24,000 bases of DNA from an uncultured Candidatus Saccharibacteria bacterium (GCA_938036785.1 CALHWE010000011.1:1-24000); one strand, 5' to 3'. Positions 3,308 to 23,346 are shown, counted from the stretch's first letter. A program made the numbers and translations. The notes: generated from the sequence alone by a model not told the origin.

Positions 3308-5722
3308 CTAAAACCGCGGTGCGGCTTCTGTTGTGGTGGCGGTGGTGATGGGCAGGTCGTTGTTTTTGTTGTAACGCGAGCCCCACATGAAGACGTCGGC
3401 ACGTTGGTTGAGTACCTCAGCAGCTTCGGCGAGGTTATCCTTCTCAGCGCCAAAGGTGCGGCGCAGCTGGAGCTGGCGCGCCATGATGGTACCGTTGATG
3501 GTGAGTTTTTCTTTGCAGGTCTCGGCGGTGAGGCCATTGAAATATGCACCAACGTGACGGATCTCGTCGCAGGTAGAGATGACTCCCCCACTGCCACCGG
3601 TTGGCTGAGCAATCAGCCAGGCATTCACTTCTTTAACATTATGTCGAACAACGATGTTCTTAGCCTTAATGACGAGCTGCGAAAGCTTGGTGGCATCATC
3701 TACTGTAGTGGCACCATACTTGAGGTCACCATCAATCGTCACTGTGCCGCTTGCTTCCACCACCAGCGTACTACTACCGGGCAGCGTACCGTGGATGGTG
3801 GCATCGCCATTAACGGTACGCACATTGTGGCCAGCAAAGCTTCCGACATCAATCGATGTACCAGCCGCTGTACCCCGGCCAAAGCTTGGCACCTTCACAT
3901 TGGTTGGTGGTGCCCAGCGGCCAGCTGGCGTGGTGGTGTTGGCAAAGGCAAGGCTATCCTTAGCGCGGTCATAATCACCACCATACCCCCGCCGGCCAGA
4001 TAATACACCACCAGTGGCTGATAGAATCTTGCCGCCATTTTGCGGTGCCATCATGCCATACTCAGCCCAGCTACCATACATATTGCCATCTTTGGTCGTC
4101 TTGAGGGTGACGATCTGTGCGTCGCCATTGCCACTGGCTGTGCCAATGCCATTACCCACCCGCAAGTCGCCACCCCAGATCTGCACCCACGGTAGTTTCG
4201 TTACCGTTACGCAGGCGGGCGAGGAAATACGACGTTCATTGCCGTCGGTGTGTTTATAATTATAATCTTTGATAGCAACAATGCGACAAATCATATCCCC
4301 TACCTTGGCATCGGCAGCGTTGATATCTTTGGTGTCATTCAGGCGCGTGTGGCTGTCGAGATATTTTTTGTTCTCACGAAAGGTGGGCTCGTTGGTGCAG
4401 TCGATCGGCTGCTTGCCGCGCAGCCAGGTGCACGCTGTATCACTGCCACTGTAGCTACCCAGGGCATAGGGATAGCCCACTGCCGCCCCACGATCGAAGA
4501 TGCTGCTCAAGCTGCCAAGGAACTGCTGGCGGTGCTGCCCTCGTACGATAAACTGGTAGGCCGCGGCTTCGCTCTCGCTCCGGTCTTTGTCGAGGCTTGC
4601 ACCAGTGTTGTGGATGGATTCGTCAATCCGACTGGGCGCAATATTCCCACCCTCCAGCGTCGCAAGCTTCTTGCCATCAATTGTGGCCGATGGATAGAGC
4701 TCAAAGTCTGAGTGCACACTAGCACACGCTGGATCGCTGCGTCGCCACGCTGGGTCACCAGCAATGCCAGGTGACCACGATATCCGTTGACAGAGTGTGC
4801 GGCCAACGTCGCTCGTTTGGATGCGATAACTCGTGAAGCGGTCAGTCATGCCGCCACTCGGATACACCGTATAAAAGAGCTGTCCAGACTGGCCCGTCAC
4901 ATTGCGCGCGAGGCTATGCCCACCACTGTAATTATTAGCAAAGCCAGTACCATCCATCCCCACGGACACGGTTGCATTGTTGGGACCATTGTTGCGGAGA
5001 TCATGCGCCCAGTAGATTTGCTCACCCGGAAAGGCTCGGACGGATTTTTGCATATTTTGCGTGCCAGGCCACTGCTTGCCCACATAGCTTTGGCCGTTGA
5101 TCGTCCAAGGTGGGATGCGCCGCGTGATCGTCACCTTCACATCGCTCGTACCACAGGCAATATTCTCGCTGGCGGCAAGGGTACGCCCGCCATCAGTTGA
5201 GATACAGCTATACAGACCAATCCCCACCGTACGCGACTGCCCCACCGGGATATCAAACTGGCCAATGTCGAGTTGCGCTCGCACTTCACCCCCCTGGCTG
5301 GTGTATTGGTTTTGGCCACTGACGCGCCCACGGTACATCACGCTCGACTGGACGTTCTTGATACGGCTATTGCGGTTGTAGTTCCAATTCATGTTGCGGT
5401 CGAGGTGCATCGAGCTAATATCGAATGGCCCCGAGCGGTTACCCGAGTAACCCGAGCCACGGATGACAATATCGACGAGGCCTGTCTGATTGTGGTCGAT
5501 CGAGATACCCGACTTATAATAATTCCGCTCGCCAGGCTGCGAAAACCACACTACTGCACAGGGACTGCCACTGCGGCAGAGCTCAGGTAGCTGGGCCTCG
5601 ATATCATTATTGGGCCGAGCTGCCACTAGCCCACCCAGCGCCGCACTCACCCCCACAGCGCACAGCAGCCCCAGCAGGCCAGCACGCACCAGTGATTGGC
5701 GACAAAAATGTACAAATGTCAT
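3308..5722 (-). CDS. Large secreted Cys-rich protein (804 aa) of unknown function with a beta-helix/adhesin-like C-terminal region
   Basis: The track ORF runs 3308-5875, but I place the start at the ATG at 5722. That ATG sits 7 nt downstream of TGCTATAAT and begins a signal-peptide-like N-terminus, MTFVHFCRQSLVRAGLLGLLCAVGVSAALGGLVAA. The protein is Gly/Asn/Ser/Thr-rich with many Cys. The C-terminal part has repetitive beta-strand-like segments (GDATIHGTLPGSSTLVVEASGTVTIDGDLKYG, LVIKAKNIVVRHNVKEVNAWLIAQ). I recognise no family. Confidence 0.7.
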   Translation of the reverse strand: MTFVHFCRQSLVRAGLLGLLCAVGVSAALGGLVAARPNNDIEAQLPELCRSGSPCAVVWFSQPGERNYYKSGISIDHNQTGLVDIVIRGSGYSGNRSGPFDISSMHLDRNMNWNYNRNSRIKNVQSSVMYRGRVSGQNQYTSQGGEVRAQLDIGQFDIPVGQSRTVGIGLYSCISTDGGRTLAASENIACGTSDVKVTITRRIPPWTINGQSYVGKQWPGTQNMQKSVRAFPGEQIYWAHDLRNNGPNNATVSVGMDGTGFANNYSGGHSLARNVTGQSGQLFYTVYPSGGMTDRFTSYRIQTSDVGRTLCQRISWSPGIAGDPAWRRSDPACASVHSDFELYPSATIDGKKLATLEGGNIAPSRIDESIHNTGASLDKDRSESEAAAYQFIVRGQHRQQFLGSLSSIFDRGAAVGYPYALGSYSGSDTACTWLRGKQPIDCTNEPTFRENKKYLDSHTRLNDTKDINAADAKVGDMICRIVAIKDYNYKHTDGNERRISSPACVTVTKLPWVQIWGGDLRVGNGIGTASGNGDAQIVTLKTTKDGNMYGSWAEYGMMAPQNGGKILSATGGVLSGRRGYGGDYDRAKDSLAFANTTTPAGRWAPPTNVKVPSFGRGTAAGTSIDVGSFAGHNVRTVNGDATIHGTLPGSSTLVVEASGTVTIDGDLKYGATTVDDATKLSQLVIKAKNIVVRHNVKEVNAWLIAQPTGGSGGVISTCDEIRHVGAYFNGLTAETCKEKLTINGTIMARQLQLRRTFGAEKDNLAEAAEVLNQRADVFMWGSRYNKNNDLPITTATTTEAAPRF

Positions 5723-5729
5723 GCTTATG

Positions 5730-5738
5730 ATTATAGCA
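5730..5738 (-). promoter_or_regulatory. Extended -10 promoter TGCTATAAT, 7 nt upstream of the ATG at 5722 (leaderless)
   Basis: Minus strand reads TGCTATAAT-CATAAGC-ATG. Confidence 0.55.
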
Positions 5739-5832
5739 AAGTTACGGCGATTGTGCACTGTGTTCATGACGACGAACGCCAGATGGTTGTAAATTAAGTA
5801 AGTAGAGCGTGTCCGAATTGCAACATCTATAA

Positions 5833-5999
5833 TTATCTCACGCTCTACCTTCCCACGCTCCCTCCGATGGAACACTATAAGGGTCGATACTTCCCAAGTA
5901 TCGACCTCTTGCGTTGGGCTGAGAATCTGTCAGTACAATGACAGATTCTCACGCTCCATCCGATGAAGCGATGGGGAGGTGGAGCTAACGCTGAGATAA
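5833..5999. repeat. 167-bp palindrome-rich element: either a structured small RNA or a MITE-like DNA element
   Basis: Terminal inverted repeat TTATCTCA (5833-5840) / TGAGATAA (5992-5999). Perfect 11-bp hairpin at 5882-5906 (GGTCGATACTT-ccc-AAGTATCGACC). Perfect 12-bp hairpin at 5921-5950 (GAGAATCTGTCA-gtacaa-TGACAGATTCTC). Direct repeat CACGCTCCcTCCGATGgAa (5854-5872) versus CACGCTCCaTCCGATGaAg (5950-5968), 16 of 19 identical. Confidence 0.6.
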
Positions 6000-8177: not shown

Positions 8178-8909
8178 CTACCGCCCTACCCTGCTTTTTT
8201 GCAATCGGTAAAACCGCTCTTGATTACCATGCGCGCCCTTCACGCTGCTATCGGCCTTGTCGATAATCACACAGTAGGTGCGCACCCACTGCTCGAAGTC
8301 GCGCAGGATGGCACGGCGCACGCTGTCATTTTTGACGATGCCACCGCGTGTAAGCTGCGCGCGCTGCGCCTCAAACTGCGGCTTGACCATCGCGATGATA
8401 CTGGTGCGCGAACTGCTGATACGCACTAGGTGCGGTAGAATTTTGCGCAGACTAATGAACGATACATCAATGACAATAATGTCTGGTGTAGTGGCTGGCA
8501 CAAAATCGCGAATGTCGGTTTTTTCATGCAGCTCAATGCGCGGGTCGCCACGTAGGCTAGGGTGGAGCTGCTCCGTCCCCACGTCCACCGCATACACCAT
8601 GCGCGCACCATGCTGCAATGCATAGTCAGTAAAGCCGCCAGTGCTGCTACCAACATCAAGCACGATAGTATTATCAAATGAAATATTGAGCCGCTGCGCG
8701 ACGCTGGCTAATTTAAGCCCCGCCCGCGACACATAGCGCTCGTGCGCCACCAGTTTTATCTGCGTCGACTCATCTACAAACATCCCCGGCTTGTGCGCCA
8801 CCGCACCATCCACCAATACCTTGCCAAGGCGAATCCAATTCTCAGCCGCTGAGCGTGTTGCTGCTTGGCCACGCGCCACCATTGCTTTGTCTAGTCGTTG
8901 TTTTTGCAT
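8178..8909 (-). CDS. tlyA: TlyA-family rRNA 2'-O-methyltransferase (S4 domain plus FtsJ-like methyltransferase)
   Basis: From the ATG at 8909: MQKQRLDKAMVARGQAATRSAAENWIRLGKVLVDG is the S4 RNA-binding domain. VLDVGSSTGGFTDYALQHGARMVYAVDVG is the SAM-binding motif. The track ORF extends to 8984, but TATAAT sits 6 nt before the ATG at 8909. Confidence 0.88.
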   Translation of the reverse strand: MQKQRLDKAMVARGQAATRSAAENWIRLGKVLVDGAVAHKPGMFVDESTQIKLVAHERYVSRAGLKLASVAQRLNISFDNTIVLDVGSSTGGFTDYALQHGARMVYAVDVGTEQLHPSLRGDPRIELHEKTDIRDFVPATTPDIIVIDVSFISLRKILPHLVRISSSRTSIIAMVKPQFEAQRAQLTRGGIVKNDSVRRAILRDFEQWVRTYCVIIDKADSSVKGAHGNQERFYRLQKSRVGR

Positions 8910-8915
8910 GTTCTT

Positions 8916-8921
8916 ATTATA
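8916..8921 (-). promoter_or_regulatory. -10 box TATAAT, 6 nt upstream of the tlyA ATG (leaderless)
   Basis: Minus strand reads TATAAT-AAGAAC-ATG(8909). Confidence 0.5.
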
Positions 8922-8984
8922 CTGCACGAGTGGGTAGATATTTAGTTGGTGTAAAGCTAATAGGCCTGCTGCATCTTTACACAA

Positions 8985-10573
8985 TGCATGAGACTATAGA
9001 GCGTAATAATGATGAGGTTGGATGATACTACTGCGCGCGGATATGCTTCTTACTTCCGTCGTTTTTCAAATTTTGAGGATGAAGAAATCCGCTTTGTTCT
9101 TTGCGCGCTATTGCAGCTTTTATATTAATAACCCACTCAAACTATCGCGCACTGCAGCATACTATTCTTCATTCGCACACGTTGCTGGAAGCTAGCAGGA
9201 TATTCAAAACACAAGACAGCTCAGCCAAGCATATAGTATATATAACAAAAATTGAGTGGGCATCGTGATAGCGAAATATCTTGCACGTATGGCTGTGCCG
9301 CATCACCAACAAGCTGCATATTCACCCTCCCGCAAAAGCACTACACATAGCAAAACACGATGCCACTGCGGCAGATGCTTCGCATAGCGAGTCAGCCTGT
9401 CTGAATAAAAAATTGATTTTGACAGCATCACATTTTTGCAAGCCAAGCGTGAGTATTTGTGTATGCCACATGGTATATTTCGCATCCTCGCTGCACATAG
9501 ATGTGCAAGAATGTATCGCACCATATTTTACTTTTATGCGTGTTTTGCAAAATTTGTATGGGCCATCTGTAAGCAGTTCTAGCCGCGATAATAAACAATT
9601 CATTTTTGCACAAATCTACAAACAATGATTATTTTTATCATCAACCGCTCATTCGCGCAGCCTATACTTCGCAGCAGCATATCGCCTCGCTATAATTTGC
9701 TCAGTATGCAAAAAACCAAAAATGAAACACCCTCCAGCCAGCCACAACAAACTTGCACGAAAAAGCAAAAAATCAAAAATACTCAAACCCAAAAAATAGA
9801 CGCGCCGCACAATGATCACATTTTTTATCACGCAGCAACAGCTCCACGCATCATGTTGCTAGCAGTATTTTTTTACGTGAGTGTGCTCAAGCCAAACGCG
9901 TAGCTTCGCAGCAACACAACAAAAAATTGTGTTCATTATTTTTAAAATACTTATGTTTACTTTGGTACGTTTTGTATTATGCCCTATTGCCATAAGCGTT
10001 ATTATATTGCTAAAGATAAATGCGCGTTTGTAACGAAAATTTGTTCATTTATGCTTATGGTTACTGTGTTTATCCTGGGTGTAAGCATACGTGTGCGTGC
10101 TCCATGCCGCACGAAACAATCGTTGAGTTTGGCACATCGTTGTTGTGCTCACTATATCCTTCTAGCTGCCCTGATGTTGTTTGTACATCACTATGCCTAT
10201 TCCTTCCTGTTGTGCTCGTATCATCGTTTTGCTCAATTGCTGTACTTCCTACGACGCTCATATTCCGAACGTTCGCCAGGTATTCTCTGTTTCTGTTCTG
10301 TCTTTTTTACAATGCCTTGTATATTTCGGCATCATCCTCGTTGCAGAGAGCTGTGTTGCATTCTTTACAATAATATCTCGATCCTATCGAGCTTGACGAC
10401 GCGCCTCATGTATTGGTTATTACAACATTATGTATGCCCTTTTTCTTGCGCGTACCATTCAGCAAAAACACAGCGCGCTCATAAGCTTGTGCTCAAAATT
10501 GGCAAAAATCGTCTCTACTCTACGTTGTTTTTATCACATCTCTAGGATGCTCCAGCCTGGGCATCACGCGGCA
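8985..10573. other. AT-rich, ORF-free tract A, depleted in G on the + strand (about 1.6 kb)
   Basis: No credible ORF. The track ORFs here (for example 9979-10545) translate to Cys/His/Phe/Leu-rich junk. Three hand-counted lines (9301, 9721, 10261; 180 nt) give A63 C53 G22 T42. Confidence 0.8.
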
Positions 10574-10574
10574 C

Positions 10575-10602
10575 AAAAAATACACCGCTTTTCGCGGTGT
10601 AT
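10575..10602 (-). terminator. Rho-independent terminator of efp
   Basis: Minus strand reads ATACACCGC-gaaaa-GCGGTGTAT followed by TTTTTTG. The 9-bp stem is perfect (10580-10588 / 10594-10602). It lies about 70 nt after the efp stop. Confidence 0.85.
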
Positions 10603-10675
10603 ATATGTTATCCCTACTTTCTCTCACTTTTGCATGTCAACGCGATGAGAGCGGCTCTCATGAGCTCTCAGGGCA

Positions 10676-11236
10676 CTATTTCTTGCGCTCGCGATACTCT
10701 CCGCTTGCAGTATCGACAGAAATAACGTCGCCCGTCTTAATAAAGGCTGGCACCTTGACGACAAGGCCCGTCTCCAGCGTCGCATCTTTGAGCACACTGC
10801 TGGTTGTATCACCTTTTACAACATCTTCGGTGTAGGTGACTTGAAGGTAGAGGTTTTTTGGCAGCTCGACATTGATCACTCTGCCATCAAAGAACTGCAG
10901 GCTCAGTGTGTCCCCCTCCTTCAGATAGTCCTTAGCGCTGTCGACGAGGTTCGCAGCAAGCTCAAACTGCTCAAAGCTAGTTGGATCCATAAAATAGAAC
11001 GTATCACCATCATTATAGAGGTACTGCACACTCTGTGTTGACACCTCGGCGGGCTCAATCTTGTCTTGCCCCTTGAAGGTCTTAGGCAGCACACTCCCAT
11101 CGATCAAGTTCTTCAGCCGCACATTCACAATTGAGCCACCCCGGCCCATTACCTTCTGATTATAGTCCACAACCCGATACGGCTTGCCATCGAGCTGCAC
11201 AATCACGCCTTTTTTGAGGTCAGTTGGTTGGTACAT
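10676..11236 (-). CDS. efp: Translation elongation factor P (Arg32-type loop)
   Basis: MYQPTDLKKGVIVQLDGKPYRVVDYNQKVMGRGGSIVNVRLKNLIDGS... aligns with EF-P along its length. AGGAGA lies 6 nt upstream of the ATG at 11236. The track ORF starts one codon earlier at a GTG. Confidence 0.93.
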   Translation of the reverse strand: MYQPTDLKKGVIVQLDGKPYRVVDYNQKVMGRGGSIVNVRLKNLIDGSVLPKTFKGQDKIEPAEVSTQSVQYLYNDGDTFYFMDPTSFEQFELAANLVDSAKDYLKEGDTLSLQFFDGRVINVELPKNLYLQVTYTEDVVKGDTTSSVLKDATLETGLVVKVPAFIKTGDVISVDTASGEYRERKK

Positions 11237-11282
11237 CACCTATCTCCTGTTTAGTAGTTGCTGCTTCGTTCGAAACATCCGC

Positions 11283-11309
11283 CAGCGCAGTCACAGAGGT
11301 ACTGCGCTG
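11283..11309. other. Perfect 9-bp hairpin between rpsR and efp
   Basis: CAGCGCAGT-cacagaggt-ACTGCGCTG. There is no U-tract 3' of the stem on either strand, so it is not a canonical terminator. Confidence 0.5.
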
Positions 11310-11318
11310 AAAAAGCTC

Positions 11319-11519
11319 CTAACCTTGCGCCACAAATGGCAGCAACGCCAAGTGGCGAGCACGCTTCACCGCTACGGCGAGTTGTCGTTGTTGTTTATCC
11401 GACAACCCTGTGCGGCTGCGTGGCTCGATCTGCCCATAAATATTAATGAACTTTTGCAATGTCTTTGCATCTTTGTAGTCAAAATAGACCGGTGTGTCCT
11501 TGCGCATGCGCTTGGCCAT
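11319..11519 (-). CDS. rpsR: 30S ribosomal protein S18
   Basis: [62 protein letters not shown] is a canonical S18 sequence. AAGGAG lies upstream of the ATG. Confidence 0.95.
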
Positions 11520-11543
11520 TATTTGTTCTCCTTTAGTATGTTG

Positions 11544-11993
11544 TTAAAATGGTATTTCTGATAGGTCAATTGGCTTGTCGTCAATGTCTTCGATGACGAC
11601 ATCCTGGCTGCTACCACTGTTAGTTGGCGCTGCGGCCGGTGTTGTATTTCCGTCAGCACGTCCACCACCAACGAAGGTGAAGTCCTCTACTGTTACTTCT
11701 ACAACAGAACGCTTGTTGCCGTCCTTATCGTCGTAGCTGCGCTGGTCGAGGCGACCACTAACGAGTAGCGGACTACCCTTCTTTACATATTGTGCAATGG
11801 TTTCGCCAGTCCGCCCCCAGGCTACACAGTTAATGAAGCTGGTTTGGTCTTGGTTTTGGCCATTTTGGTTGCGCCATGTACGAGTGACCGCTAGTGTAAA
11901 ATTCGCAACGTTCTGCCCACTTGCTGTGGTGCGCACCTCTATATCGCGCGTCAAATTGCCCATCAAAATAACTTTGCTAAATCCTCGAGCCAT
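11544..11993 (-). CDS. ssb: Single-stranded DNA-binding protein
   Basis: The OB-fold N-terminus MARGFSKVILMGNLTRDIEVRTTASGQNVANFTLAV, a Gly/Pro-rich linker and the acidic tail DDKPIDLSEIPF. GAGGAGG Shine-Dalgarno sequence. The gene sits between rpsF and rpsR, the classic order. Confidence 0.95.
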   Translation of the reverse strand: MARGFSKVILMGNLTRDIEVRTTASGQNVANFTLAVTRTWRNQNGQNQDQTSFINCVAWGRTGETIAQYVKKGSPLLVSGRLDQRSYDDKDGNKRSVVEVTVEDFTFVGGGRADGNTTPAAAPTNSGSSQDVVIEDIDDKPIDLSEIPF

Positions 11994-12041
11994 ACATCCT
12001 CCTCGATTCTTTACTGTGGTTATTAGCTGTTGTGGTAATTT

Positions 12042-12386
12042 TTACTCTTCTGTCTGGCGGCTGGCTTCGCGTGCTTTAGCCTCGGCCATCAGCTTGCGGC
12101 CCTTCTCGTCCACCTTGACGAGCAGGTAGCGGATCACATCATCAGAAATATTCAGCGCATTACTGATCTTTAGCGGTGCATCGGCAGGCAGCGCCACCTC
12201 AAAGTAGACATACACCGCAAAGTCTTCCTTCTTAATACTATACTGCAGCTTTTTCTTGCCCCAGTTGTCTTCGCTGGTAATAGAGCCACCAGCGCCGAGC
12301 ACCAGCTCACGCACCTTAGCAAGCGGTGCTTCAAGGTTTGATTCTAGATCTGGCCGAATCAAAACCGTTAGTTCATATTGTTTCAT
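12042..12386 (-). CDS. rpsF: 30S ribosomal protein S6
   Basis: From the ATG at 12386: MKQYELTVLIRPDLE...FAVYVYFEV matches the S6 family. A strong AAGGAGG lies 7 nt upstream. The track ORF starts 8 codons earlier with no support. Confidence 0.93.
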   Translation of the reverse strand: MKQYELTVLIRPDLESNLEAPLAKVRELVLGAGGSITSEDNWGKKKLQYSIKKEDFAVYVYFEVALPADAPLKISNALNISDDVIRYLLVKVDEKGRKLMAEAKAREASRQTEE

Positions 12387-12461
12387 ATGTAAACCTCCTT
12401 TGGGATCCATATGGATGTTTATCCGGACGATAAACTTAGGTTAATAACGCATTATATTATA
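12387..12461 (-). promoter_or_regulatory. rpsF promoter (overlapping TATAAT boxes at 12451-12461) and a leader of about 60 nt containing a hairpin
   Basis: Minus strand reads CGCGTATAATATAAT...GTTTATC-gtccg-GATAAAC (perfect 7-bp stem, 12417-12435)...AAGGAGGTTTACAT-ATG. The loop contains CCG. Confidence 0.55.
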
Positions 12462-12469
12462 CGCGAGAC

Positions 12470-15313
12470 AGCATGCAAAGTCTAGCGAGGTACAGGGGTG
12501 TGGAGGTGTTGTGCTTTTTAGTTTTTCTATTTTTTGAATGGTCACATACTCTGTGTAATTATAAGTTGTTAGTTACCTCATTCGCCGCATGATTGCACCC
12601 CGTCTTGCAAGCACTTATCCATCCTGCCATAAGCCAAGAAGTGGCATGACGCGATCATATGCTCTATCCGCATTTCACAAAAAAGATAATTACATTATGG
12701 CGCTACAATTCGCTTGCTTCGCCCCATCACTATCCTTAATATATTATGCCCATATATTATATATAAGCCCAGCAAAGCACCCTTTAAACGCTATCGCATC
12801 TATAAAATAATACTTGTTATATGTCAAAATATGAAAAATGAACCACCCGTACTTGTCGTGTATATATTACTTTGTCTTTCGCTCTTTTAGCTCTTTCAAT
12901 GCTGCGATGTATCTATAAAAATTATCGAGCCAGTTTTCGCTTGTGCTTATTTCGCTATTGCTTCTGCCTAAAGCGAAGTATTGTTTTGCTGTCTCCTTGC
13001 GCATTTTTGTCAGAGCCACCTATAGCACTCCATGGGGCCATTATGTCTATCTCATTTTTGCACACTACTTACATAGAGCCAGCTGCCCCGCCTCCATACA
13101 TCGTACATGCAGGTCGATATTTTGCCATTTGTTTCCATACCATAAAGTACTATATAATGCAAAACGTGAAAATTTTGAAACCTTCATTCGTACCATCAAC
13201 GATGCATCATTATTTTTTATCCAAGCCATACATCGCACCCTATTAGATCGTGTATATGTAATAACCATAACCACTATATACTGCTTGTGTTTGTCGCACA
13301 TTCGCCTACATTTAACACACAATTAGCCACCTACGCTCAAAAATATGAAAATAGCACCATGCTAACCCACTCGCTGGATCATATACATCACACTCCATTC
13401 ATTTTTTGACTTCGCACTCACACTCTGAGGTTGTTTTATACACCTAATGCTTTGCTATACTAATTATGCCTATCTCACCATCAACTATCCTTTGCTTGCA
13501 TTATGCAACCGATCATGAAAATTTGCTATGCTATCGTATTGGCATGACGCAGACGCAAATCCAGCTATCACCACATCCTCACAAATCACCCTCTTAGCCA
13601 CAAAGTTACTCGCGCCTACCATACATTTTGGCTCACCAATGCCTACTATTTTTGACCCTCGTCGCACCCATCTGCTTGGTTATGCAAATTTTACTACCAA
13701 GCCTATCGTTGAATAATTTTCTACTGTTTTCATACATCCTCTCCGCACCAATTGTACATCGTCATACCTCGCGGTACACAAAAATCTCACCCCTCACACC
13801 ATCATCGCATCGCACTATTTCAAAAATCATCATTTTTTATTAGCGGTCAATCAGCTGCTGCCACACATGCTTCGCATATCATACACATCTCACCAAAATT
13901 ATCACATTCTTTCGGCACGCACAAACCATCATTGCTTCTTGGCATTATATTTTTGCACTACTTTGCCAGGCTGAGTTTCATTATTCTCCAAATTTTTATT
14001 ATGAACATCATTATGTTTCGTTCATAAACTTTAGCGAGGCGGCCCATTACTTAATTCGCTTCTTGCATCACATTCAACCTTCTTGTGTTCGCACGCGCCG
14101 CACAGATTTTAGCCAGAACATGGCAGCCATTTACTCAAGCGAACTCACTCCCTACTTTATCTCACAACCTCACATTCATTTTTGCATATTTCCCTAATCA
14201 AAAATGTGAAATTTTGCACTGCTACTACACGCACTTCATTTTTATTACACATGTTGTACGTCGCTCCTCTATCTTTCTATCTCGCTGCGTCAATTTTTGC
14301 ATACTCATTCACAAATTTGCACATAGGTGTGCACACTGCCATCATCCTCATTTTATATTTACTACCAAACAACCCATTCTTATATCATTCATCACTCACA
14401 TAGTAGCAAAAAATATTTTGCACGCACATTATGTTGCAAAGTTACGAACGTTTTTGCTAGACGTCGCTAATTTTTTAGCAATAGCAAATAGTGCATCAGC
14501 GTTTTTTATTACAGCGTCGCAATGCTATATTATTTTTGTCATGTATGTGCTATCTGCTTGCCACTCCGGTTTTCGAAAATAATCGTTTTTTCACAGCAAC
14601 GCACTTCTGTCATTTTTCTACGTGCAAAATTATAACTACATATATCGTGTACCAATCAAAATAGACAAAAAATAATATTTTGCTGCAGAATAATTATTAA
14701 TAATGTATTTCCCACTCATATTTCTGCAAACCACTTTGCAAAAATATCTTTACTACTGCAAAAAGCTGCTCGTCGCTTTGCATTATACTTTGCCGTTTTC
14801 TCATCTTTGACTTTTTGTATTTCAATTCATACCGCACTCGTCGCTTATTCGTTTCGCGCCCGCTCAATTTCTCATCAATATAGCGGCAATAAACTGTATG
14901 AACGAATTATTATAATATTCATATTCTCTCACTGCCCCCTCGCTTGTGTTATGTGTAGCATCATATACAAAAAAGATATATTCGATGAAGCAATCGACTC
15001 ACTTTGCATACAAAATATTCATTACGATACACTATATATAGTACATTATCATATCTATGCTTTTTAAATTTACCATTCACCGCTCTGAATATATTCATAT
15101 TATATTCAGACATTTCCTTGCTCGTTTTCAGGCAATTTATAACATACAAGTGCGTCAATATAGCACACAAATATCTCCTCGCAGTACGAGAAATGCATTA
15201 TTTTCGTCACAACGCACAACATTACACCAACCAATACACGCGATCCTTAAAAATTCAATGGCATAGCACGTGCCCTTGTTTATTCTTTGCAATCACCATA
15301 GATTTTTTGCACA
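12470..15313. other. AT-rich, ORF-free tract B, depleted in G on the + strand (about 2.8 kb)
   Basis: No credible ORF in six frames. I hand-counted 126 G in 1,080 nt (about 12%). Five fully counted lines give A76 C91 G31 T102. There is a 64-nt run with no G at 14339-14402. TTTTGCA-type motifs recur throughout. Confidence 0.85.
13453..13461 (+). promoter_or_regulatory. Orphan extended -10 promoter TGCTATACT inside tract B
   Basis: The 13-mer TGCTATACTAATT (13453-13465) is identical to the pheA promoter (20693-20705), and its first 10 nt match the ychF promoter (6151-6160). No credible gene lies downstream. Confidence 0.4.
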
Positions 15314-15314
15314 G

Positions 15315-15338
15315 AAAAACCAGTGCTCATCACACTGG
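15315..15338 (-). terminator. Rho-independent terminator of the 247-aa gene
   Basis: Minus strand reads CCAGTG-tgatgag-CACTGG followed by TTTTTCT. It lies 25 nt after the stop at 15363. Confidence 0.7.
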
Positions 15339-15362
15339 CTTTCTCTCGTCTATAACTAGCCT

Positions 15363-16106
15363 TTATGCAGCGAGTGAGAAGTCTCCTTGAACCAAACCAA
15401 GCTCATCACTATACTCAAGCCGTTGCGACTCTGTAGTCGGAACCAGCACAATACCACTTGCAGTGCTGAGCTCGCCATCAATCACATCACCTTGGTCTGT
15501 GATCATCTGCGGGCCTTCGCCTGGCTCACCCTGAATAATGCCATACACAACAGGGGCACTATCAATCATCTCTTGATCTGGGCGCTTTCCAACATAGAAT
15601 CCAATCAATGAGCCGATTACCCCTTCTTCCGCTCCACCATCTTCGCCTAAAGAAATCGCCGCTTCTTGGTGGGATAGCGACGACTCAATTGCGGAATACA
15701 GCGATGATACATCGCCTTGAGTGTCCTTAGGGCTCTTAAAGTCGTCAACTATTAGCACGACATATGGGACATCATTGACCTCAATAATATCACCAATTGC
15801 CAAGCCAAGCTTATCGCGCAGCTCGGATAATTTATTATGAATGGTATCAATGTGCTGATCTGTCATCTCAGCCATCGACAGTGCAAATAGCGGCCCAAGC
15901 TCGCGCTGCAGCCAGCCTCGAACCTCTTGAGCAGATGGCAGCTCAAGAGCATTTGGCTTGCCATATCGATCATTAAACTTTTTGTCTGTCAGCATATTTC
16001 CATCATTTGCTGTGTCGTATTTTGAATATTTTGTCTCGCCCACTGGCGGTTTGTCACTTCTTGCGAATGGTTCTTCGCTTGTGTTATTGTTGGTATACTC
16101 TCTCAT
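15363..16106 (-). CDS. Acidic hypothetical protein (247 aa), no recognisable domain
   Basis: Clean ORF with host-like GC (about 53% in one counted line), its own terminator, and the sequence GGAGTATAAACAACT-ATG upstream. The protein is rich in Asp/Glu/Gly with no TM helix or signal peptide. I recognise no family. Confidence 0.65.
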   Translation of the reverse strand: MREYTNNNTSEEPFARSDKPPVGETKYSKYDTANDGNMLTDKKFNDRYGKPNALELPSAQEVRGWLQRELGPLFALSMAEMTDQHIDTIHNKLSELRDKLGLAIGDIIEVNDVPYVVLIVDDFKSPKDTQGDVSSLYSAIESSLSHQEAAISLGEDGGAEEGVIGSLIGFYVGKRPDQEMIDSAPVVYGIIQGEPGEGPQMITDQGDVIDGELSTASGIVLVPTTESQRLEYSDELGLVQGDFSLAA

Positions 16107-16724
16107 AGTTGTTTATACTCCGCACTATGATTTTGGTTAACGGCATTGGCTCCTTTCTGCCGATTCCTCCCTGCTGCGTGCTTTGTGGCGCGTGGCAGCG
16201 TGGTAGTAAGTAATCGTATCATTTGCATTATAGCATAAAACCAGCGCCTGCAAAGCTATTTTTGGCCTTATTTTCGTATTATTTTCCCCATATGTACCCC
16301 TGTCGTACCAGTGTTAGCTATCTGGACGATAATTATATATTTTTCGCAAGCATTTTGGCTCTAATTACGCACTTCTCCGCCTTCACCAGCAAGATTTTAT
16401 TGCTCTGCCTGCCTCTATCGCTACACGTGGGCCGAGGTAAAATATAAACCACAAATAGATATAGATAAGCCCAGCTCTTGCATACGGAGGCTAAACAACT
16501 AGTGCTGAATAAAATAGCACACAGAGGCACACGCGAGGCCTCCTGAGGTTTTTAGGTATAGATTCTCCCCACTCACGCACTTCCTAAATACTGAGAGCTA
16601 CCAAAGCCAGATGATTGATACACCGTTATTATTCGCTCCTCCAACTGCTCGCTATGTGGCCATGGCAAAACAAAATCGCCCAAGGCATCTACCTCGGACG
16701 ATCTTGTATGTTGCGCTGCAGAAC
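16107..16724. other. ORF-free tract C between rpsG and the 247-aa gene (about 0.6 kb)
   Basis: Only short junk ORFs. Line 16261-16320 counts A10 C15 G9 T26, the same C>G direction as tracts A and B but weaker. Confidence 0.7.
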
Positions 16725-17204
16725 TTAGCCGCGAGCAAAGTGGGCAAAGGCACGGTTGGCCTCGGCCATTTTGTGGGTGTCTTCCTTTTTCTTGAAGGCG
16801 ACACCAGTTTGGTTGCACGCATCAACGATCTCTGTTGCCAGACGCTTGCTATATGGCATACCACTCTTCGATCGGGCAGCCTGCACTAGCCACATAAAAG
16901 CAAAGTGCTGCTGACGATGACCCTGGATAGGGAATGGAATCTGGTAGTTAGCACCACCAACGCGGCGGCTCTTCACCTCAAAGCTAGGACTGATGTTCTT
17001 GATGCAAGTCTCAAACACTTCTAGTGGGTCCTCACTCTTGAGGCTTCGTGCAGCTTGTTCGAGCGCACTATAGACGGCCCGCTCAGCAACCTGCTTTTTG
17101 CCGTCTAGCATCGATTTGTTAATCAAGCGCTGCACCAGCACCGACTGGTACTTGCGGTCTGGCTTGATGGTGCGCTGGAGTTTTTTCGTGACTTTACGAG
17201 GCAT
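16725..17204 (-). CDS. rpsG: 30S ribosomal protein S7
   Basis: MPRKVTKKLQRTIKPDRKYQSVLVQRLINKSMLDGKKQVAERAVY... is canonical S7. The AAGGAGGG Shine-Dalgarno sequence lies inside the end of rpsL, and the start is 2 nt after the rpsL stop. Confidence 0.95.
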   Translation of the reverse strand: MPRKVTKKLQRTIKPDRKYQSVLVQRLINKSMLDGKKQVAERAVYSALEQAARSLKSEDPLEVFETCIKNISPSFEVKSRRVGGANYQIPFPIQGHRQQHFAFMWLVQAARSKSGMPYSKRLATEIVDACNQTGVAFKKKEDTHKMAEANRAFAHFARG

Positions 17205-17206
17205 GG

Positions 17207-17620
17207 TTAGTTACCCTCCTTCTTGGCGCCGTACTTGCTGCGGCCTTGCTTACGCTTCGATACCCCTTGTAGGTCGAGCGCGCCACGGACGATGTGGTAG
17301 CGCACACCCGGGAGATCCGGCACACGGCCACCACGGACGAGCACCACCGCGTGCTCCTGCAGGTTGTGGCCTTCGCCGCCAATGTATGCCCAGACTTCGT
17401 GGCCGTTAGTGAGGCGGACACGAGCCACCTTGCGCATAGCGGAGTTTGGCTTCTTGGGGGTCTTGGTCGTTACCTTGACGCAGACGCCACGCTTGAGCGG
17501 TGCATTTTGGTCGTAGTAGCGCACCTTGAGTGCGTTGTGGATGCGCCCCAGCGCTGGCGACTTCGACTTCCGAGCCGCAGTCTTGCGTGGCTTGCGCACC
17601 AATTGGTTGATGGTTGGCAT
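17207..17620 (-). CDS. rpsL: 30S ribosomal protein S12
   Basis: From the ATG at 17620: [24 protein letters not shown]...[20 protein letters not shown] is canonical S12. AAGGAG lies 7 nt upstream. The track ORF starts 14 codons earlier with no support. Confidence 0.95.
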
Positions 17621-17832
17621 GCAATTCTCCTTATTGCTTATTGTTCGGCTTCTATCGCTCACCCCACTGGTTGGATCAGTAGTGCGACCATAGAAGTACC
17701 TGCTACTGGGCTCATAGCCCAGCGTTTATGTGTACGATTATGGAGCAGCACCTCCGCCTCGTGTCTATACCTTCTCCGCCAGGTAGCGCACTCACACCAG
17801 CGCCCCACCCCGAGAAGAGGAAACTCGTGGGT

Positions 17833-17952: not shown

Positions 17953-18450
17953 TTAGAGTCGTTTATATGATCGATTGTACCGTCTCTGCATATCTTTCTT
18001 GCAATAGCTACGATTTAGTGTATACGCAGTCACCATAATTCCCGCTACTGGCCTTGTTTTACTACGCATCCGTCGCAATATTACAACAAAATCTATATCT
18101 GCAAGCCATAAATACAATGTATCCCCTTTTGGGTGCTTGTCCCAAAAAGCCCTTACTTCTGGTTCTTTATAGTTCTCTAGTATTGCACGCACCCAAGGAA
18201 GCCGCGTCGCTCTATCATAGTCAATCTTTCGAAGCTTCTTACCGCATGTAATAATGTGAGTAAAACCCTTTGGGTAAAAACCTCCCCAGGATGGATCGGG
18301 GTGTGAATTTGTATAAACAGGTAATCCATCAACAATCGGTGGTGTTGTCTTAAGAAAATCATGCTCATACACAGCAAACAATTTTTTTATATCAGCCTCA
18401 TATGAATTACTAGAGAGCTCTAACTCTAGCGGTAGCCATTCTGGTATCAT
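17953..18450 (-). CDS. Hypothetical basic protein (165 aa), translationally coupled to the DUF3800 gene
   Basis: The ATG at 18450-18448 shares one nucleotide with the upstream stop (TGATG). The track ORF uses an upstream TTG at 18468. GC is low. The C-terminus is very basic (KKDMQRRYNRSYKRL). I recognise no family. Confidence 0.6.
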   Translation of the reverse strand: MIPEWLPLELELSSNSYEADIKKLFAVYEHDFLKTTPPIVDGLPVYTNSHPDPSWGGFYPKGFTHIITCGKKLRKIDYDRATRLPWVRAILENYKEPEVRAFWDKHPKGDTLYLWLADIDFVVILRRMRSKTRPVAGIMVTAYTLNRSYCKKDMQRRYNRSYKRL

Positions 18451-19172
18451 CACTCGCGCGGTTCCCAAAAGAATAAATTGAACTTTTCAGTGCTAGGCGG
18501 TGTACCACTTGTCAGCTCTTGCTGAGTAATTTTTTTTAGAAATGCTACTAACTCCTTTTTTGCTTCTGATTTCTGTTGGTTACTTGGTTTATTTGCATAC
18601 ATTACTGCACCAGTCACAAGGTCGGCCAATTGTAAACCTATCACCTCATGTGAACACAATGGTTGTGCTGTAAAATCTTTATCTTGGAACTTCGCTGTAT
18701 TTCTCAAGTATCTTGCTAACTCATGTGACCTATGCCCAGACCAGGTATCTTTATAGTCTAAAAATAACCGCAAACTGTGCGTAGATGTACTCTTTTCAGC
18801 AATATTACGCACCAAGTAGTATTGCATTTTATAATAAAAATCATCGCTTGTCTCGTTGTGAGCTTCATAATTAACCTTATTTTTATCAATCACTACTGCT
18901 CTGTAGCTGACTTGATCAGTTTGGTGCAACAACAATAACAAATCTTTATAGTATTCAATTTTTGATGGGCTCACCTTAGTCCACTTAATCTCACGGTGTG
19001 AAGATATCTTATGTTTCTTTTTAATACACTTAACTTCTCTAAGGAGCATTGGCAGCTGTTTAGTATTTAGCCAAACTGCACCAAGAAGCATCTTGCCAGA
19101 GCCATGCCCAATGTGACAAGATTCATCAATATAGACATATGTAGAATATTCTTGATTGTGTATATTTCTCAT
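18450..19172 (-). CDS. DUF3800-family protein (240 aa)
   Basis: N-terminal STYVYIDESCHIG matches the family's hhh-D-E-S-G-like motif. C-terminal VIGLQLADLVTGAV matches its LQ-x-A-D motif. GC is low, about 35-40% in two counted lines. Confidence 0.7.
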   Translation of the reverse strand: MRNIHNQEYSTYVYIDESCHIGHGSGKMLLGAVWLNTKQLPMLLREVKCIKKKHKISSHREIKWTKVSPSKIEYYKDLLLLLHQTDQVSYRAVVIDKNKVNYEAHNETSDDFYYKMQYYLVRNIAEKSTSTHSLRLFLDYKDTWSGHRSHELARYLRNTAKFQDKDFTAQPLCSHEVIGLQLADLVTGAVMYANKPSNQQKSEAKKELVAFLKKITQQELTSGTPPSTEKFNLFFWEPRE

Positions 19173-21567: not shown

Positions 21568-23346
21568 CTAGAGCAATTCATCATCATCTTGAAGGGTCGA
21601 AAGATATTCTTCAGCTGTTGACCGGTCAAGGCCTCCAGCGATAAGTCCTCTACCATAGTACTTGAGCCACCAAGTAGGAAAAGTATCAAGCAAGCAGCGT
21701 GTCATTTGGCGGTTATCGTTGTTGATGTGCGCCAATGTATTAAGGTTATCAAGAATGGTTTTTCTCTCCATATATTCAAGGTCAGACTGCACGACGTCGT
21801 GCATAATGCGCTGCCGTGTTGCATCATCACACGGTAGCTCACCTACTGTATTAGTCATATACTGGAGCCAATTGTCAAAGTCTCGTTGATCCAGGATTTG
21901 CTCTGGGATCTTCGGCTCACTGTGGCAACCAATCGGGTCATTGCGTATCACTTTCAAGAGGCCATTCGTATACTCAGCATCAGCCCCTGCTGCAATGAGC
22001 CGATCTGCTATAGCGTTGCCATCATCAACCACTCGATAAGGATATGGATACTGACAAACAAATCGACGATCCAGTATCGTTATAACCTCTACACCTTGCT
22101 GATACAAATGCCTGGCACGCATGGCAGTCTTATTATTGTTAAGGTATTTATCATAATCCATTATGTTGATAAGATCGTGGCGGCTTTCATCACTCAGTCG
22201 GTCAATTCTATCAACGAAATAATTTTTACTCATATTCCATACACAATCTCCTTCGTCGGCATAGGCTATTGTCCAGTACAACTCATCATAGCCAATCATC
22301 TCTGCAATTCGGTCAAAGTCTCCCACATAATCGCGCCCCTCTAGCAGCTGACTAGCTCGCGGATCAACATCCAAACCAAAGCCTTCAATTCTCTCATTCA
22401 ACCACAAGAATTCTAGGTCTTCTGTCGTCAGCTCTTCACCTGCGTGCACCCGTCGCTCCATGTCTGTGAGGCGTCTCGTATTTTCCCCACCATCATTGGT
22501 GTAGTTGGGGCTATGTTGGCTAGCAATTCGCTCGTACTTCGTCCACGAGCTGGTCGTTGCTTGGTATGCCTCTTGTTTCGTCTCATTATAAGCGCTATCA
22601 GCAAGAGCCGCAGCATAGAGCGCAGCAAAGTCCCCCCTGCCTAGCAGTGGTGCCAGCTGGTCGTCCACTTCACGCTCACCACGAATCACTCCATGGTCGA
22701 TAGCATCATACACCTGCGCCAGCGCCTCAGCATTGAGCTCCGGCCAAGGTGCAGTAGTCGAGCCAGTACGCTCCTTGAATTCTCCCTTGGCTTTGTCGTA
22801 CTCGCCCATCGTCTTGAGCGATTCCCAGACATATACTTTAAACCAGTCTGGATATACATGCTCATTCTCATCGCTGCGTAGATATGTTGACCACTGCGTG
22901 AGGCTCTCAGCTTGGTCAACTTGGACGGTATCCACCAGACGCTGCTTTTCTTCTAGGCTTAGCACTACCTCACCTTGGCCACGCTTGCGGGCAATCCGCT
23001 CTTGCAGCGCAAAATACGCTTCTGGCACCGCCTCTTCTTTAATAAGTAAATCAGCAATCTCCTCTTGCGCGAACCGAGCGTCTGGGTGTGTAATGCTGCA
23101 GTAGCCACTCTCCAGCACCGCCGCTATCTTGGCTTCGTGATTACCCAGCCTGCGATGGGTTGGCTGGTGAACGTGGTGGTTATGCTCATTGTGCGTGTCA
23201 TCACTACGATGAGCTGGCTGCTCATGTGTGATTATTCTCGCGATGCGCAGTGCTCCGTCGCCAAGGTTGTGATGGAACATACCAAGGAGTTTCTCTCCAG
23301 TTGGTGATGATGCAATAAATTGTTCTGGTGATTTTGGCTTTGGCAT
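21568..23346 (-). CDS. Hypothetical protein (592 aa) with a His-rich N-terminal segment
   Basis: Clean ORF. TATAAT (23386-23381) lies 34 nt upstream of the ATG. The N-terminus contains HEQPAHRSDDTHNEHNHHVHQPTHRRLGNHE. The remainder is acidic and predicted soluble. I recognise no family. Confidence 0.65.
   Translation of the reverse strand: MPKPKSPEQFIASSPTGEKLLGMFHHNLGDGALRIARIITHEQPAHRSDDTHNEHNHHVHQPTHRRLGNHEAKIAAVLESGYCSITHPDARFAQEEIADLLIKEEAVPEAYFALQERIARKRGQGEVVLSLEEKQRLVDTVQVDQAESLTQWSTYLRSDENEHVYPDWFKVYVWESLKTMGEYDKAKGEFKERTGSTTAPWPELNAEALAQVYDAIDHGVIRGEREVDDQLAPLLGRGDFAALYAAALADSAYNETKQEAYQATTSSWTKYERIASQHSPNYTNDGGENTRRLTDMERRVHAGEELTTEDLEFLWLNERIEGFGLDVDPRASQLLEGRDYVGDFDRIAEMIGYDELYWTIAYADEGDCVWNMSKNYFVDRIDRLSDESRHDLINIMDYDKYLNNNKTAMRARHLYQQGVEVITILDRRFVCQYPYPYRVVDDGNAIADRLIAAGADAEYTNGLLKVIRNDPIGCHSEPKIPEQILDQRDFDNWLQYMTNTVGELPCDDATRQRIMHDVVQSDLEYMERKTILDNLNTLAHINNDNRQMTRCLLDTFPTWWLKYYGRGLIAGGLDRSTAEEYLSTLQDDDELL

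Follow-up and report, generated by a model that had tools for sequence, protein, structure and literature searches.

Ancient remnants of pseudogenes, so-called ghost genes, are known from reduced, host-associated genomes, including those of Rickettsia, Mycobacterium leprae and Sodalis. Here, we describe two long tracts, T1 and T2, within a stretch of 24,000 nucleotides (nt) from an uncultured Candidatus Saccharibacteria bacterium (GCA_938036785.1 CALHWE010000011.1:1-24000; the whole stretch is referred to as the window). T1 lies between tlyA and efp, and T2 between rpsF and an orphan open reading frame (ORF) of 247 aa; a third, shorter tract, T3, separates the orphan ORF from rpsG. All of these genes are encoded on the - strand, referred to below as the gene strand. 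An earlier reading made from the sequence alone had singled out positions 8985-16724 as a largely non-coding block, in which only efp, rpsR, ssb, rpsF and the orphan ORF are coding, and our gene map agrees with this count (2328 of 7740 nt). With moderate confidence, we interpret T1 and T2 as neutral relic DNA, which most likely descends from gene-strand genes that have died. No literature on comparable tracts in Saccharibacteria was found.

T1 and T2 are non-coding and diverge at the synonymous rate

The window was compared with 27 genomes of species rank, in which efp is 96-98% identical to that of the window. They carry the labels Candidatus Saccharibacteria or Nanosynbacter, and their sample names suggest a human oral or saliva origin. 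The same tracts with the same junctions were present in 26-27 of these independently assembled genomes, and in many ENA contigs of up to 1.0 Mb, and an assembly artefact was therefore rejected. Misassembly, which the sequence-only reading had itself named as a way in which it could fail, is thus not borne out, as the tracts recur in 27 assemblies made independently, some with contigs of 0.5-1.0 Mb. The tracts could be aligned from end to end in 26-27 species, with identities of 83-92% for T1 and 79-89% for T2 (25 species), as compared to 93-98% for the flanking genes. When the window and about 20 kb past each of its ends were inspected, all remaining junctions were shorter than 0.7 kb. T1 and T2 are hence real and unusual for the ~64 kb inspected, and it is on this scale that the description of the tracts as anomalous for a compact genome holds. 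The GC content of the neighbouring genes (0.50-0.56) is above that of all three tracts.

Both T1 and T2 were non-coding by all tests run. With any single stop codon reassigned, no open stretch of the gene strand exceeded 157 codons; on the antisense strand, which is stop-poor, open stretches of up to 365 codons appeared under stop reassignment, without periodicity or conservation. An alternative genetic code was rejected, since no gene-strand frame opens and neither a period-3 signal nor third-position variability was seen. Chi-square values for period-3 composition were 1-13 in the tracts versus 15-42 in all flanking genes. Variability by codon position, evaluated over 25-26 species, was clear in the orphan ORF (p ~0), absent from T2, and limited to a faint, non-significant trend in T1. 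A search for conserved small ORFs, which covered T1 alone, yielded none; the best candidate was intact in 76% of the species and had no codon pattern. A sliding scan of synonymous and non-synonymous change was uninformative, as even the real orphan ORF scored low. The tracts had been called ORF-free, which is not literally correct, because the G-poor + strand carries chance ORFs of up to 188 aa; none of these is conserved or periodic.

Screening for other kinds of element was likewise negative. Rfam covariance models gave no match in T1 or T2 at the gathering threshold (only three chance snoRNA matches with E values of 1.8-6.1), no tRNA or tmRNA gene was found in the tracts, and Pfam and PHROG scans of the T1 and T2 consensus frames returned no match. 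The possibility that intact homologous genes had been overlooked was thereby addressed: profile searches of T1 and T2 with Pfam, PHROG and a family hidden Markov model (HMM) were all negative. Direct, inverted or tandem repeats of note were not detected in either tract, a phage collection contained no match to T1 or T2, and a plasmid collection, searched with T2 only, contained none to T2. A mobile element, prophage or plasmid insertion was rejected on account of this lack of similarity and of significant repeats, together with the presence of the tracts in all 27 species. T1 and T2 were also rejected as paralogues of each other (best nhmmer E=0.058), and a replication origin was rejected since the cumulative skew is monotonic across the window. 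Consensus folding of the alignments (alifold) showed only three terminators standing out, with energies near zero elsewhere (positions 13134-12411 lay outside the scan), and z-scores of the minimum free energy of single sequences of the tracts resembled those of coding DNA. Neither a covariance-model match, nor conserved structure, nor conservation above the neutral level was observed that would indicate a large structured RNA in T1 or T2.

The rate at which the tracts diverge was calibrated against 643 four-fold sites in eight flanking genes. Pairwise diversity was 0.135 in T1 and 0.164 in T2, versus 0.165 at the four-fold sites; T1 and T2 thus diverge at the synonymous, neutral rate. Insertions and deletions (indels) were few, with 41 gap intervals per at least 881 substitutions in T1 and 121 per at least 1884 in T2, or about 5% of substitutions, and nearly all of them were 1-2 nt in size, located in homopolymers and not multiples of three. 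The length of T1, which is 1676-1700 nt in 26 species, is stable because indels are few and small; the indel spectrum alone suffices to account for it.

Two observations concern short conserved words. Runs of A5 or T5 in T1 and T2 had a column identity of 0.94, versus 0.84 for the background and ~0.87 for single A or T sites, which could reflect either lower mutability or selection for A-tracts. The longest invariant run within T2, GTTGCATAATGCAAG (13495-13509, -), contains the inverted half-sites TTGCAT/ATGCAA one base apart; its significance is borderline, ~0.1 such runs being expected.

In terms of composition, the + strand GC skew of T2 was -0.30 overall and -0.43 at positions 13500-14000, and that of T1 and T3 was -0.13; among the coding controls, the efp-rpsF operon gave -0.11 and the orphan ORF -0.145. 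The sequence-only reading was therefore right that C exceeds G on the + strand in all three tracts, but only T2 goes beyond its coding neighbours, and its statement that nearby coding lines lack such skew applies to rpsG-rpsL only. The purine content of the gene strand was 0.54-0.63 in the tracts (0.59 for T2 as a whole and 0.61-0.63 in its core), an excess that makes up part of the skew and persists because transitions cannot erase it and transversions are rare.

The present mutation spectrum was derived from singleton substitutions polarised by the majority base. It was transition-dominated and strand-symmetric, with C>T at 9.8-12.0% per C and G>A at 10.6-11.6% per G, and the equilibrium GC that it implies, 0.35-0.40, is close to the tracts' own GC. 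No context-dependence of present-day mutation was found in the tracts. Gains of C in T2 outnumbered losses among singletons (62:35), on terminal branches (707:592) and on internal branches (312:244), the branch counts being taken from a neighbour-joining tree with much homoplasy, probably due to recombination. Because the present spectrum is symmetric and C is being regained, the T2 skew represents a fading legacy and not the result of an ongoing strand-specific process. G/C sites were the more variable ones in the tracts, and the reverse was true at four-fold sites (A/T-ending 0.18-0.20 versus G/C-ending 0.15, with a four-fold-site GC of ~0.6); synonymous sites are therefore held GC-rich, by selection or biased gene conversion, against AT-biased mutation.

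Origin of the tracts and competing explanations

T1 occupies a position that is variable in more distant Saccharibacteria, although the gene order rpsR-efp-tlyA is preserved across the group. Comparison of the efp-tlyA interval, which had been proposed as a check, showed that T1 is kept within the genus and that elsewhere a gene, a short gap or nothing is found. Four forms were distinguished: (i) 0-10 nt, (ii) ~480 nt containing an ORF of 157-160 aa, (iii) ~400-770 nt that are ORF-free, AT-rich and G>C-skewed (L028, L029, L034, L069 and L070), and (iv) in 25 loci, 1.5-2.2 kb containing a gene-strand ORF of 433-617 aa. The gene that sits in the slot of T1 in other Saccharibacteria is beta-lactamase-like and 556-605 aa long; a Pfam scan, made for the copy in locus L045 only, showed Beta-lactamase2 and PG_binding_4 domains. 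The interval measures 1689 nt in L040 versus 1691 nt in the window, and L030, whose efp is 86% identical, retains the ORF. These four forms look like a decay series, which would make T1 the likely ghost of a gene of ~590 aa.

Stop codons in T1 are consistent with this interpretation, as evidenced by their uneven distribution over the three gene-strand frames (18/39/26; empirical p ~0.02) and their even distribution on the antisense strand. The best window of 240 codons contained 3 stops, versus a simulated mean of 8.2, a value reached in 0 of 400 simulations. Heterogeneity among the gene-strand frames passed the 5% threshold in 4 of 26 species, and that among the antisense frames never did. 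Identification of T1 by sequence as the beta-lactamase-like ghost was rejected, as an HMM of 25 homologues, run against six-frame translations, and a colinearity test (see below) were both negative.

For T2, synteny upstream of rpsF was examined in the same manner: T2 was at the same junction in 26-27 relatives and had no gene counterpart elsewhere, the corresponding position in more distant relatives being occupied by 185-1274 nt. Stops in the gene-strand frames of T2 numbered 52/78/84 (empirical p ~0.02) and those in the antisense frames 28/28/30; gene-strand heterogeneity passed the 5% threshold in 7 of 25 species, and antisense heterogeneity in no species. Locus L028 shares the order rpsL-rpsG-orphan-tract-rpsF, and its AT-rich tract measures 1274 nt. 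When homology of T1 and T2 to distant loci was sought, only the orphan ORF and the rpsF promoter aligned to L028. Lineages in between were not encountered: a metagenome scan gave none with 83-88% efp identity to L028, and a genome scan none with 88-96% to the window. A derivation of T2 from ftsK, a gene located upstream of rpsF in many relatives, was rejected, since ftsK is intact ~10 kb away in this genome.

The neighbourhood of T2 is accessory in character, as it comprises a strain-variable candidate defence pair and the hypervariable orphan ORF. The pair (17953-19172, -) is AT-rich and encodes a DUF3800 protein of 240 aa and a protein of 171 aa, corresponding to A and B of the PADLOC candidate defence system PDC-M04 (E values of 6e-65 and 4e-28); among the 27 species, it was present only in the window and in L002. 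It is also worth recording that, among 1018 ORFs of at least 200 aa from the fetched Saccharibacteria loci, those with the highest sense-strand GC skew (0.28-0.33) were mostly genes of 237-272 aa from a different Saccharibacteria genus, where they lie within a few kb upstream of rpsF (at ~7900-8700 in L045-type loci). Many of these adjoin rpsF, which is the position of the orphan ORF and T2 in the window.

Taken together, we infer that the ancestors of the tracts were genes, and also which genes these were. They would have lain on the same strand as the neighbouring genes and have been inactivated before the genus radiated. Subsequent drift, mainly by transitions, would have carried the tracts to an AT-biased equilibrium with a GC of ~0.35-0.40, while the purine excess of the sense strand would have been retained since transversions are rare, and the length kept because indels are few and nearly all 1-2 nt. 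T1 would be the ghost of a peptidoglycan (PG)-binding, beta-lactamase-like gene of ~590 aa between efp and tlyA. T2 would be the ghost of one or more AT-rich accessory genes, probably acquired horizontally, in a variable region, and its strong deficit of C relative to G would have been inherited from that origin and now be relaxing; a past strand-specific episode may have contributed. Of the explanations offered by the sequence-only reading, foreign or decayed DNA that underwent a strand-specific process fared best in its first half, given the neutral rate, the AT-biased equilibrium GC, the position of T1 and the weak relic frames; the process itself finds no support in the present spectrum, as C>T equals G>A and T2 regains C. 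For a protein-bound structural region, another of these explanations, no evidence was seen, the higher conservation of A5 and T5 runs being the sole hint.

Several points weigh against the interpretation of T1 and T2 as dead genes. Homology to any gene was not detected: Pfam and PHROG scans of the consensus frames and the family HMM were negative, tblastn of 1964 ORFs from distant loci against the tracts gave nothing, and the low-stop frame of T1 retrieved from 5.8 billion proteins only chance ORFs of the same tract in other strains. The colinearity of weak high-scoring segment pairs was 0.211, versus 0.204 in a reversed control. The relic frame signal is modest, is not seen in the T2 consensus, comes from species that are not independent and is unaccompanied by period-3 composition. 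Two lineages with no more than ~78% identity in coding DNA each have AT-rich tracts at the two junctions, which is unexpected under a deletion bias, and the ~64 kb inspected are part of a genome of ~1 Mb. The skew of the T2 core (+0.41 to +0.46 on the gene strand) is greater than that of all 1018 ORFs mentioned above (maximum 0.34), and descent from an ordinary gene does not account for it in full. Finally, T1 and T2 have a 2-fold excess of GpC, and the non-alignable tracts of L028 (7566-8780 and 10562-11333) one of 1.6-1.8-fold, which is not seen in other intergenic DNA of these genomes. Such an enrichment, common to T1, T2 and L028, hints at a shared origin or force. Context-dependent mutation was rejected as its cause, since C has the same mutation rate within GpC as elsewhere. 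T1 and T2 are also poor in TpC, CpC and GpG.

Because of the T2-core skew and the GpC excess, a function exerted at the level of composition and a past hypermutation have to be retained as rivals. According to the former, the tracts would be functional without sequence conservation, either as unstructured, fast-evolving transcripts or as an AT-rich, A-tract-rich, protein-bound spacer or insulator that separates strongly expressed ribosomal-protein operons. The existence of non-alignable, AT-rich, G>C-skewed tracts at the same two junctions in the separate lineage L028 speaks for such a role, as do the unusual GpC enrichment shared by these tracts with T1 and T2, the confinement of T1 length to within 24 nt in 26 species, the conservation of A5/T5 runs, and the recurrence of the 9-mer TGCAAAAAT, which occurs 8 times in the window versus 0.6 expected, with 7 copies in T1 and T2. 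Nevertheless, the substitution rate equals the synonymous rate, the indel spectrum by itself explains the stable length, conserved structure is lacking, terminators precede both tracts, and the distance between efp and tlyA is 0-10 nt in many Saccharibacteria, which thus need no spacer at that site. Conservation of the 9-mer does not exceed that of any A5 run, and its enriched sub-words explain its recurrence. We consider such a function unlikely. Equally, that T1 and T2 have been kept as AT-rich, A-tract-rich, purine-skewed spacers or long unstructured transcripts for a trait other than their sequence at the two junctions flanking the rpsF-ssb-rpsR-efp operon in at least two lineages, with GpC-rich composition as part of the constraint, appears to us improbable.

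The second rival sees in T2, and perhaps also in T1, the fossil of a past strand-coordinated hypermutation, e.g., cytosine deamination of a single-stranded gene strand, which destroyed the gene or genes in one episode. Such an event would account for the base frequencies of the T2 core (C 0.113-0.115 versus G 0.27-0.31), for a C/T ratio of 0.42-0.44 that is below its equilibrium of ~0.55-0.64 while G/A (0.75-1.0) is above it, and for a skew beyond that of any intact ORF sampled, which is now relaxing as it would after a one-off event. The surviving C of the gene strand in the core is mostly in GpC (51%), and TpC (0.53) and CpC (0.59) are scarcer than their complements GpA (0.88) and GpG (0.69). 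However, the gene strand has no surplus of T (A 0.34 versus T 0.28; TpT observed/expected 0.92-0.95), unlike what C>T conversion would produce; the excess of GpC involves the G of that strand as well and extends to T1, where skew is low; and the present-day spectrum has neither strand nor context bias, with no intact parent for comparison. We regard this scenario as unlikely. That the tracts are artefacts or misread genes, i.e., chimeras, DNA read in an alternative code, a large known structured RNA or a mobile element, is hardly credible: nothing beyond the missing standard ORFs argues for it, and it is contradicted by the 27 independent assemblies, by the failure of any frame to open, and by the absence of repeats and of phage (T1 and T2) or plasmid (T2) matches.

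If T1 and T2 are relic DNA, ~4.6 kb of neutral DNA would have persisted in a gene-dense, naturally competent epibiont with a genome of ~1 Mb while at least 27 species radiated, from which it would follow that DNA loss is slow relative to substitution. The tracts would then display the raw mutation spectrum of these genomes, which is AT-biased, transition-dominated and strand-symmetric, and would offer candidate sites for neutral insertions in genetic work on the genus. The by-product of more interest may be the near-invariant T3 promoter and leader in front of a gene with 29%-identical alleles.

A few further remarks apply to the 9-mer. Six of the seven copies of TGCAAAAAT in T1 and T2 (9432-9440, 9602-9610, 13054-13062, 13949-13957, 14178-14186, 14293-14301 and 14737-14745) are on the gene strand, and the word resembles the local extended -10 element TGCTATAAT. 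Its candidacy as a binding site or promoter was rejected, since its flanks are unrelated in addition to the points made above. For TGCAAAAA, 7 occurrences compare to 5.3 expected under a maximal-order Markov model. The enrichment of TGCAAAAAT is a by-product of A-runs and TGCA-type words.

Operon boundaries, T3 and the orphan ORF

The features of the region are compiled in Table 1. The block had been thought to split ribosomal-protein operons. This description does not apply: rpsL-rpsG and rpsF-ssb-rpsR-efp are not split, because each keeps its own promoter and terminator. The rpsF-ssb-rpsR-efp operon (10676-12410, -) is intact, with 93-98% DNA identity over 27 species and a strong period-3 signal. 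Its promoter and leader include an invariant run of 61 nt (12471-12411; 25 species), and the terminator at the end of efp contains one of 20 nt (10588-10569). The stem of the rpsL-rpsG terminator shows compensatory changes at two pairs, one of which is C-G to U-A in 4 of 11 species. The conserved structure directly after the stop codon of the orphan ORF is probably its terminator. Long transcripts reading through from the ribosomal promoters had been put forward as an explanation for the tracts; with conserved intrinsic terminators predicted after efp, rpsG and the orphan ORF, read-through into the tracts would be unlikely, and it is also disfavoured by the lack of conserved structure and of above-neutral conservation in the tracts.

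Table 1. Positions of genes, tracts and predicted signals in and around the non-coding block of the window.
Feature	Position	Strand	Details
tlyA	8178-8984	-	ORF
T1 tract	8985-10675		1691 nt, GC 0.417
T1 body, likely decayed gene remnant	8985-10568	-	GC 0.41, - strand skew +0.13
Intrinsic terminator at efp end (rpsF-ssb-rpsR-efp operon)	10602-10569	-	9-bp GC-rich stem then TTTTTT; Alifold z -4.6
efp	10676-11239	-	ORF
rpsR	11319-11519	-	ORF
ssb	11544-11993	-	ORF
rpsF	12042-12410	-	ORF
T2 tract	12411-15362		2952 nt, GC 0.379
rpsF promoter, TTTGCA-17-TATAAT	12479-12451	-	promoter scan; leader down to 12411
T2 body, likely decayed accessory/foreign gene(s)	12480-15257	-	GC 0.38, - strand skew +0.31 (peak +0.46), purine 0.59-0.63
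Conserved structure after orphan ORF stop	15395-15258 (part beyond ORF: 15258-15362)	-	Alifold z -7.4, -5.5
Orphan ORF, 247 aa	15363-16106	-	period-3 composition, third-position variability
20-codon upstream ORF, MPLTKIIVRSINNYERVYQQ	16146-16084	-	Shine-Dalgarno present; overlaps orphan ORF start
T3 tract	16107-16724		618 nt, GC 0.453
T3 promoter, TTTGCA-16-TGCTATAAT	16254-16227	-	then leader of ~114 nt
Variable part of T3	16357-16664	.	column identity 0.63-0.76, gap fraction 0.2-0.9, indel-rich
rpsL-rpsG intrinsic terminator	16703-16665	-	14-bp stem and T-run; Alifold z -9.2
rpsG	16725-17204	-	ORF; Pfam Ribosomal_S7 in source contig annotation
rpsL	17207-17662	-	ORF; Pfam Ribosomal_S12 in source contig annotation
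rpsL-rpsG promoter	17862-17833	-	extended -10 TGCTATAAT

T3 had been regarded as functionless along with the other two tracts. It contains, however, the rpsG terminator and a near-invariant promoter/leader of 245 nt. Over 25 species, the latter (16112-16356) has an identity of 96-98% and includes invariant stretches of 68, 38, 27, 25 and 20 nt; promoter, leader and the 20-codon upstream ORF (together 16084-16356) are more conserved than the ribosomal-protein genes. No significant fold of the T3 promoter/leader was obtained. Judged from its sequence, T3 is working regulatory DNA consisting of terminator, promoter and leader, and it falls outside the relic interpretation.

The gene downstream of this leader is strikingly different in its conservation. 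Alleles of the orphan ORF in the window and in L001 (5123-5857) are 29% identical where the flanks are ~95% identical, so that an ultra-conserved leader drives a gene with highly divergent alleles. All database matches to the orphan ORF had at least 85% identity and were within the genus; the ORF at the same position in L028 is 33% identical. Pfam, PHROG and PADLOC gave no match. On sequence evidence, the orphan ORF is a real, genus-restricted, hypervariable gene.

Some side observations remain. A hairpin in the rpsF leader (TTTATC-GTCCG-GATAAA) and a conserved element in T3 (TATC-GTCCA-GATA) share the core TTATCGTCC, located downstream of a TATAAT box; the two sites (12419-12427 and 16325-16333, -) were noticed by eye, and their similarity may be due to chance, with ~0.1 expected. 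Two long ORFs on the - strand, of 855 aa (3308-5875) and 592 aa (21568-23346), have no Pfam family on record and no PADLOC match, and the latter has only weak PHROG matches. The 592-aa ORF is located between ftsK and a prephenate dehydratase gene; it is unrelated to the beta-lactamase-like protein of 587 aa that other Saccharibacteria have.

Comparison with known systems

Among the systems to which T1 and T2 can be compared, three are relevant. Large non-coding RNAs of bacteria (OLE, GOLLD, ROOL, HEARO and raiA) resemble the tracts in being kilobase-scale, ORF-free regions that are held in position within a bacterial clade. The tracts differ from these in having no covariance-model match, no structure and no conservation above the neutral level, and their G and C are unbalanced for pairing. 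AT-rich accessory or defence islands acquired horizontally share with them an AT-rich composition, a purine-rich sense strand and, in the window, proximity to the strain-variable PDC-M04 candidate defence pair and to the hypervariable orphan gene. Unlike such islands, both tracts are gene-free and fixed throughout the 27 species, and they lack integrase or repeat boundaries as well as matches to phage (T1 and T2) or plasmids (T2). With ghost genes, the tracts have in common a long ORF-free stretch at a position where relatives have a gene, neutral evolution, AT-richness and a clade-wide distribution. They depart from described ghost genes in that no recognisable homology is left although the length, in the case of T1, is still about that of an intact gene, and in that they are found in a streamlined, naturally competent genome of ~1 Mb, from which such DNA would be expected to be purged.

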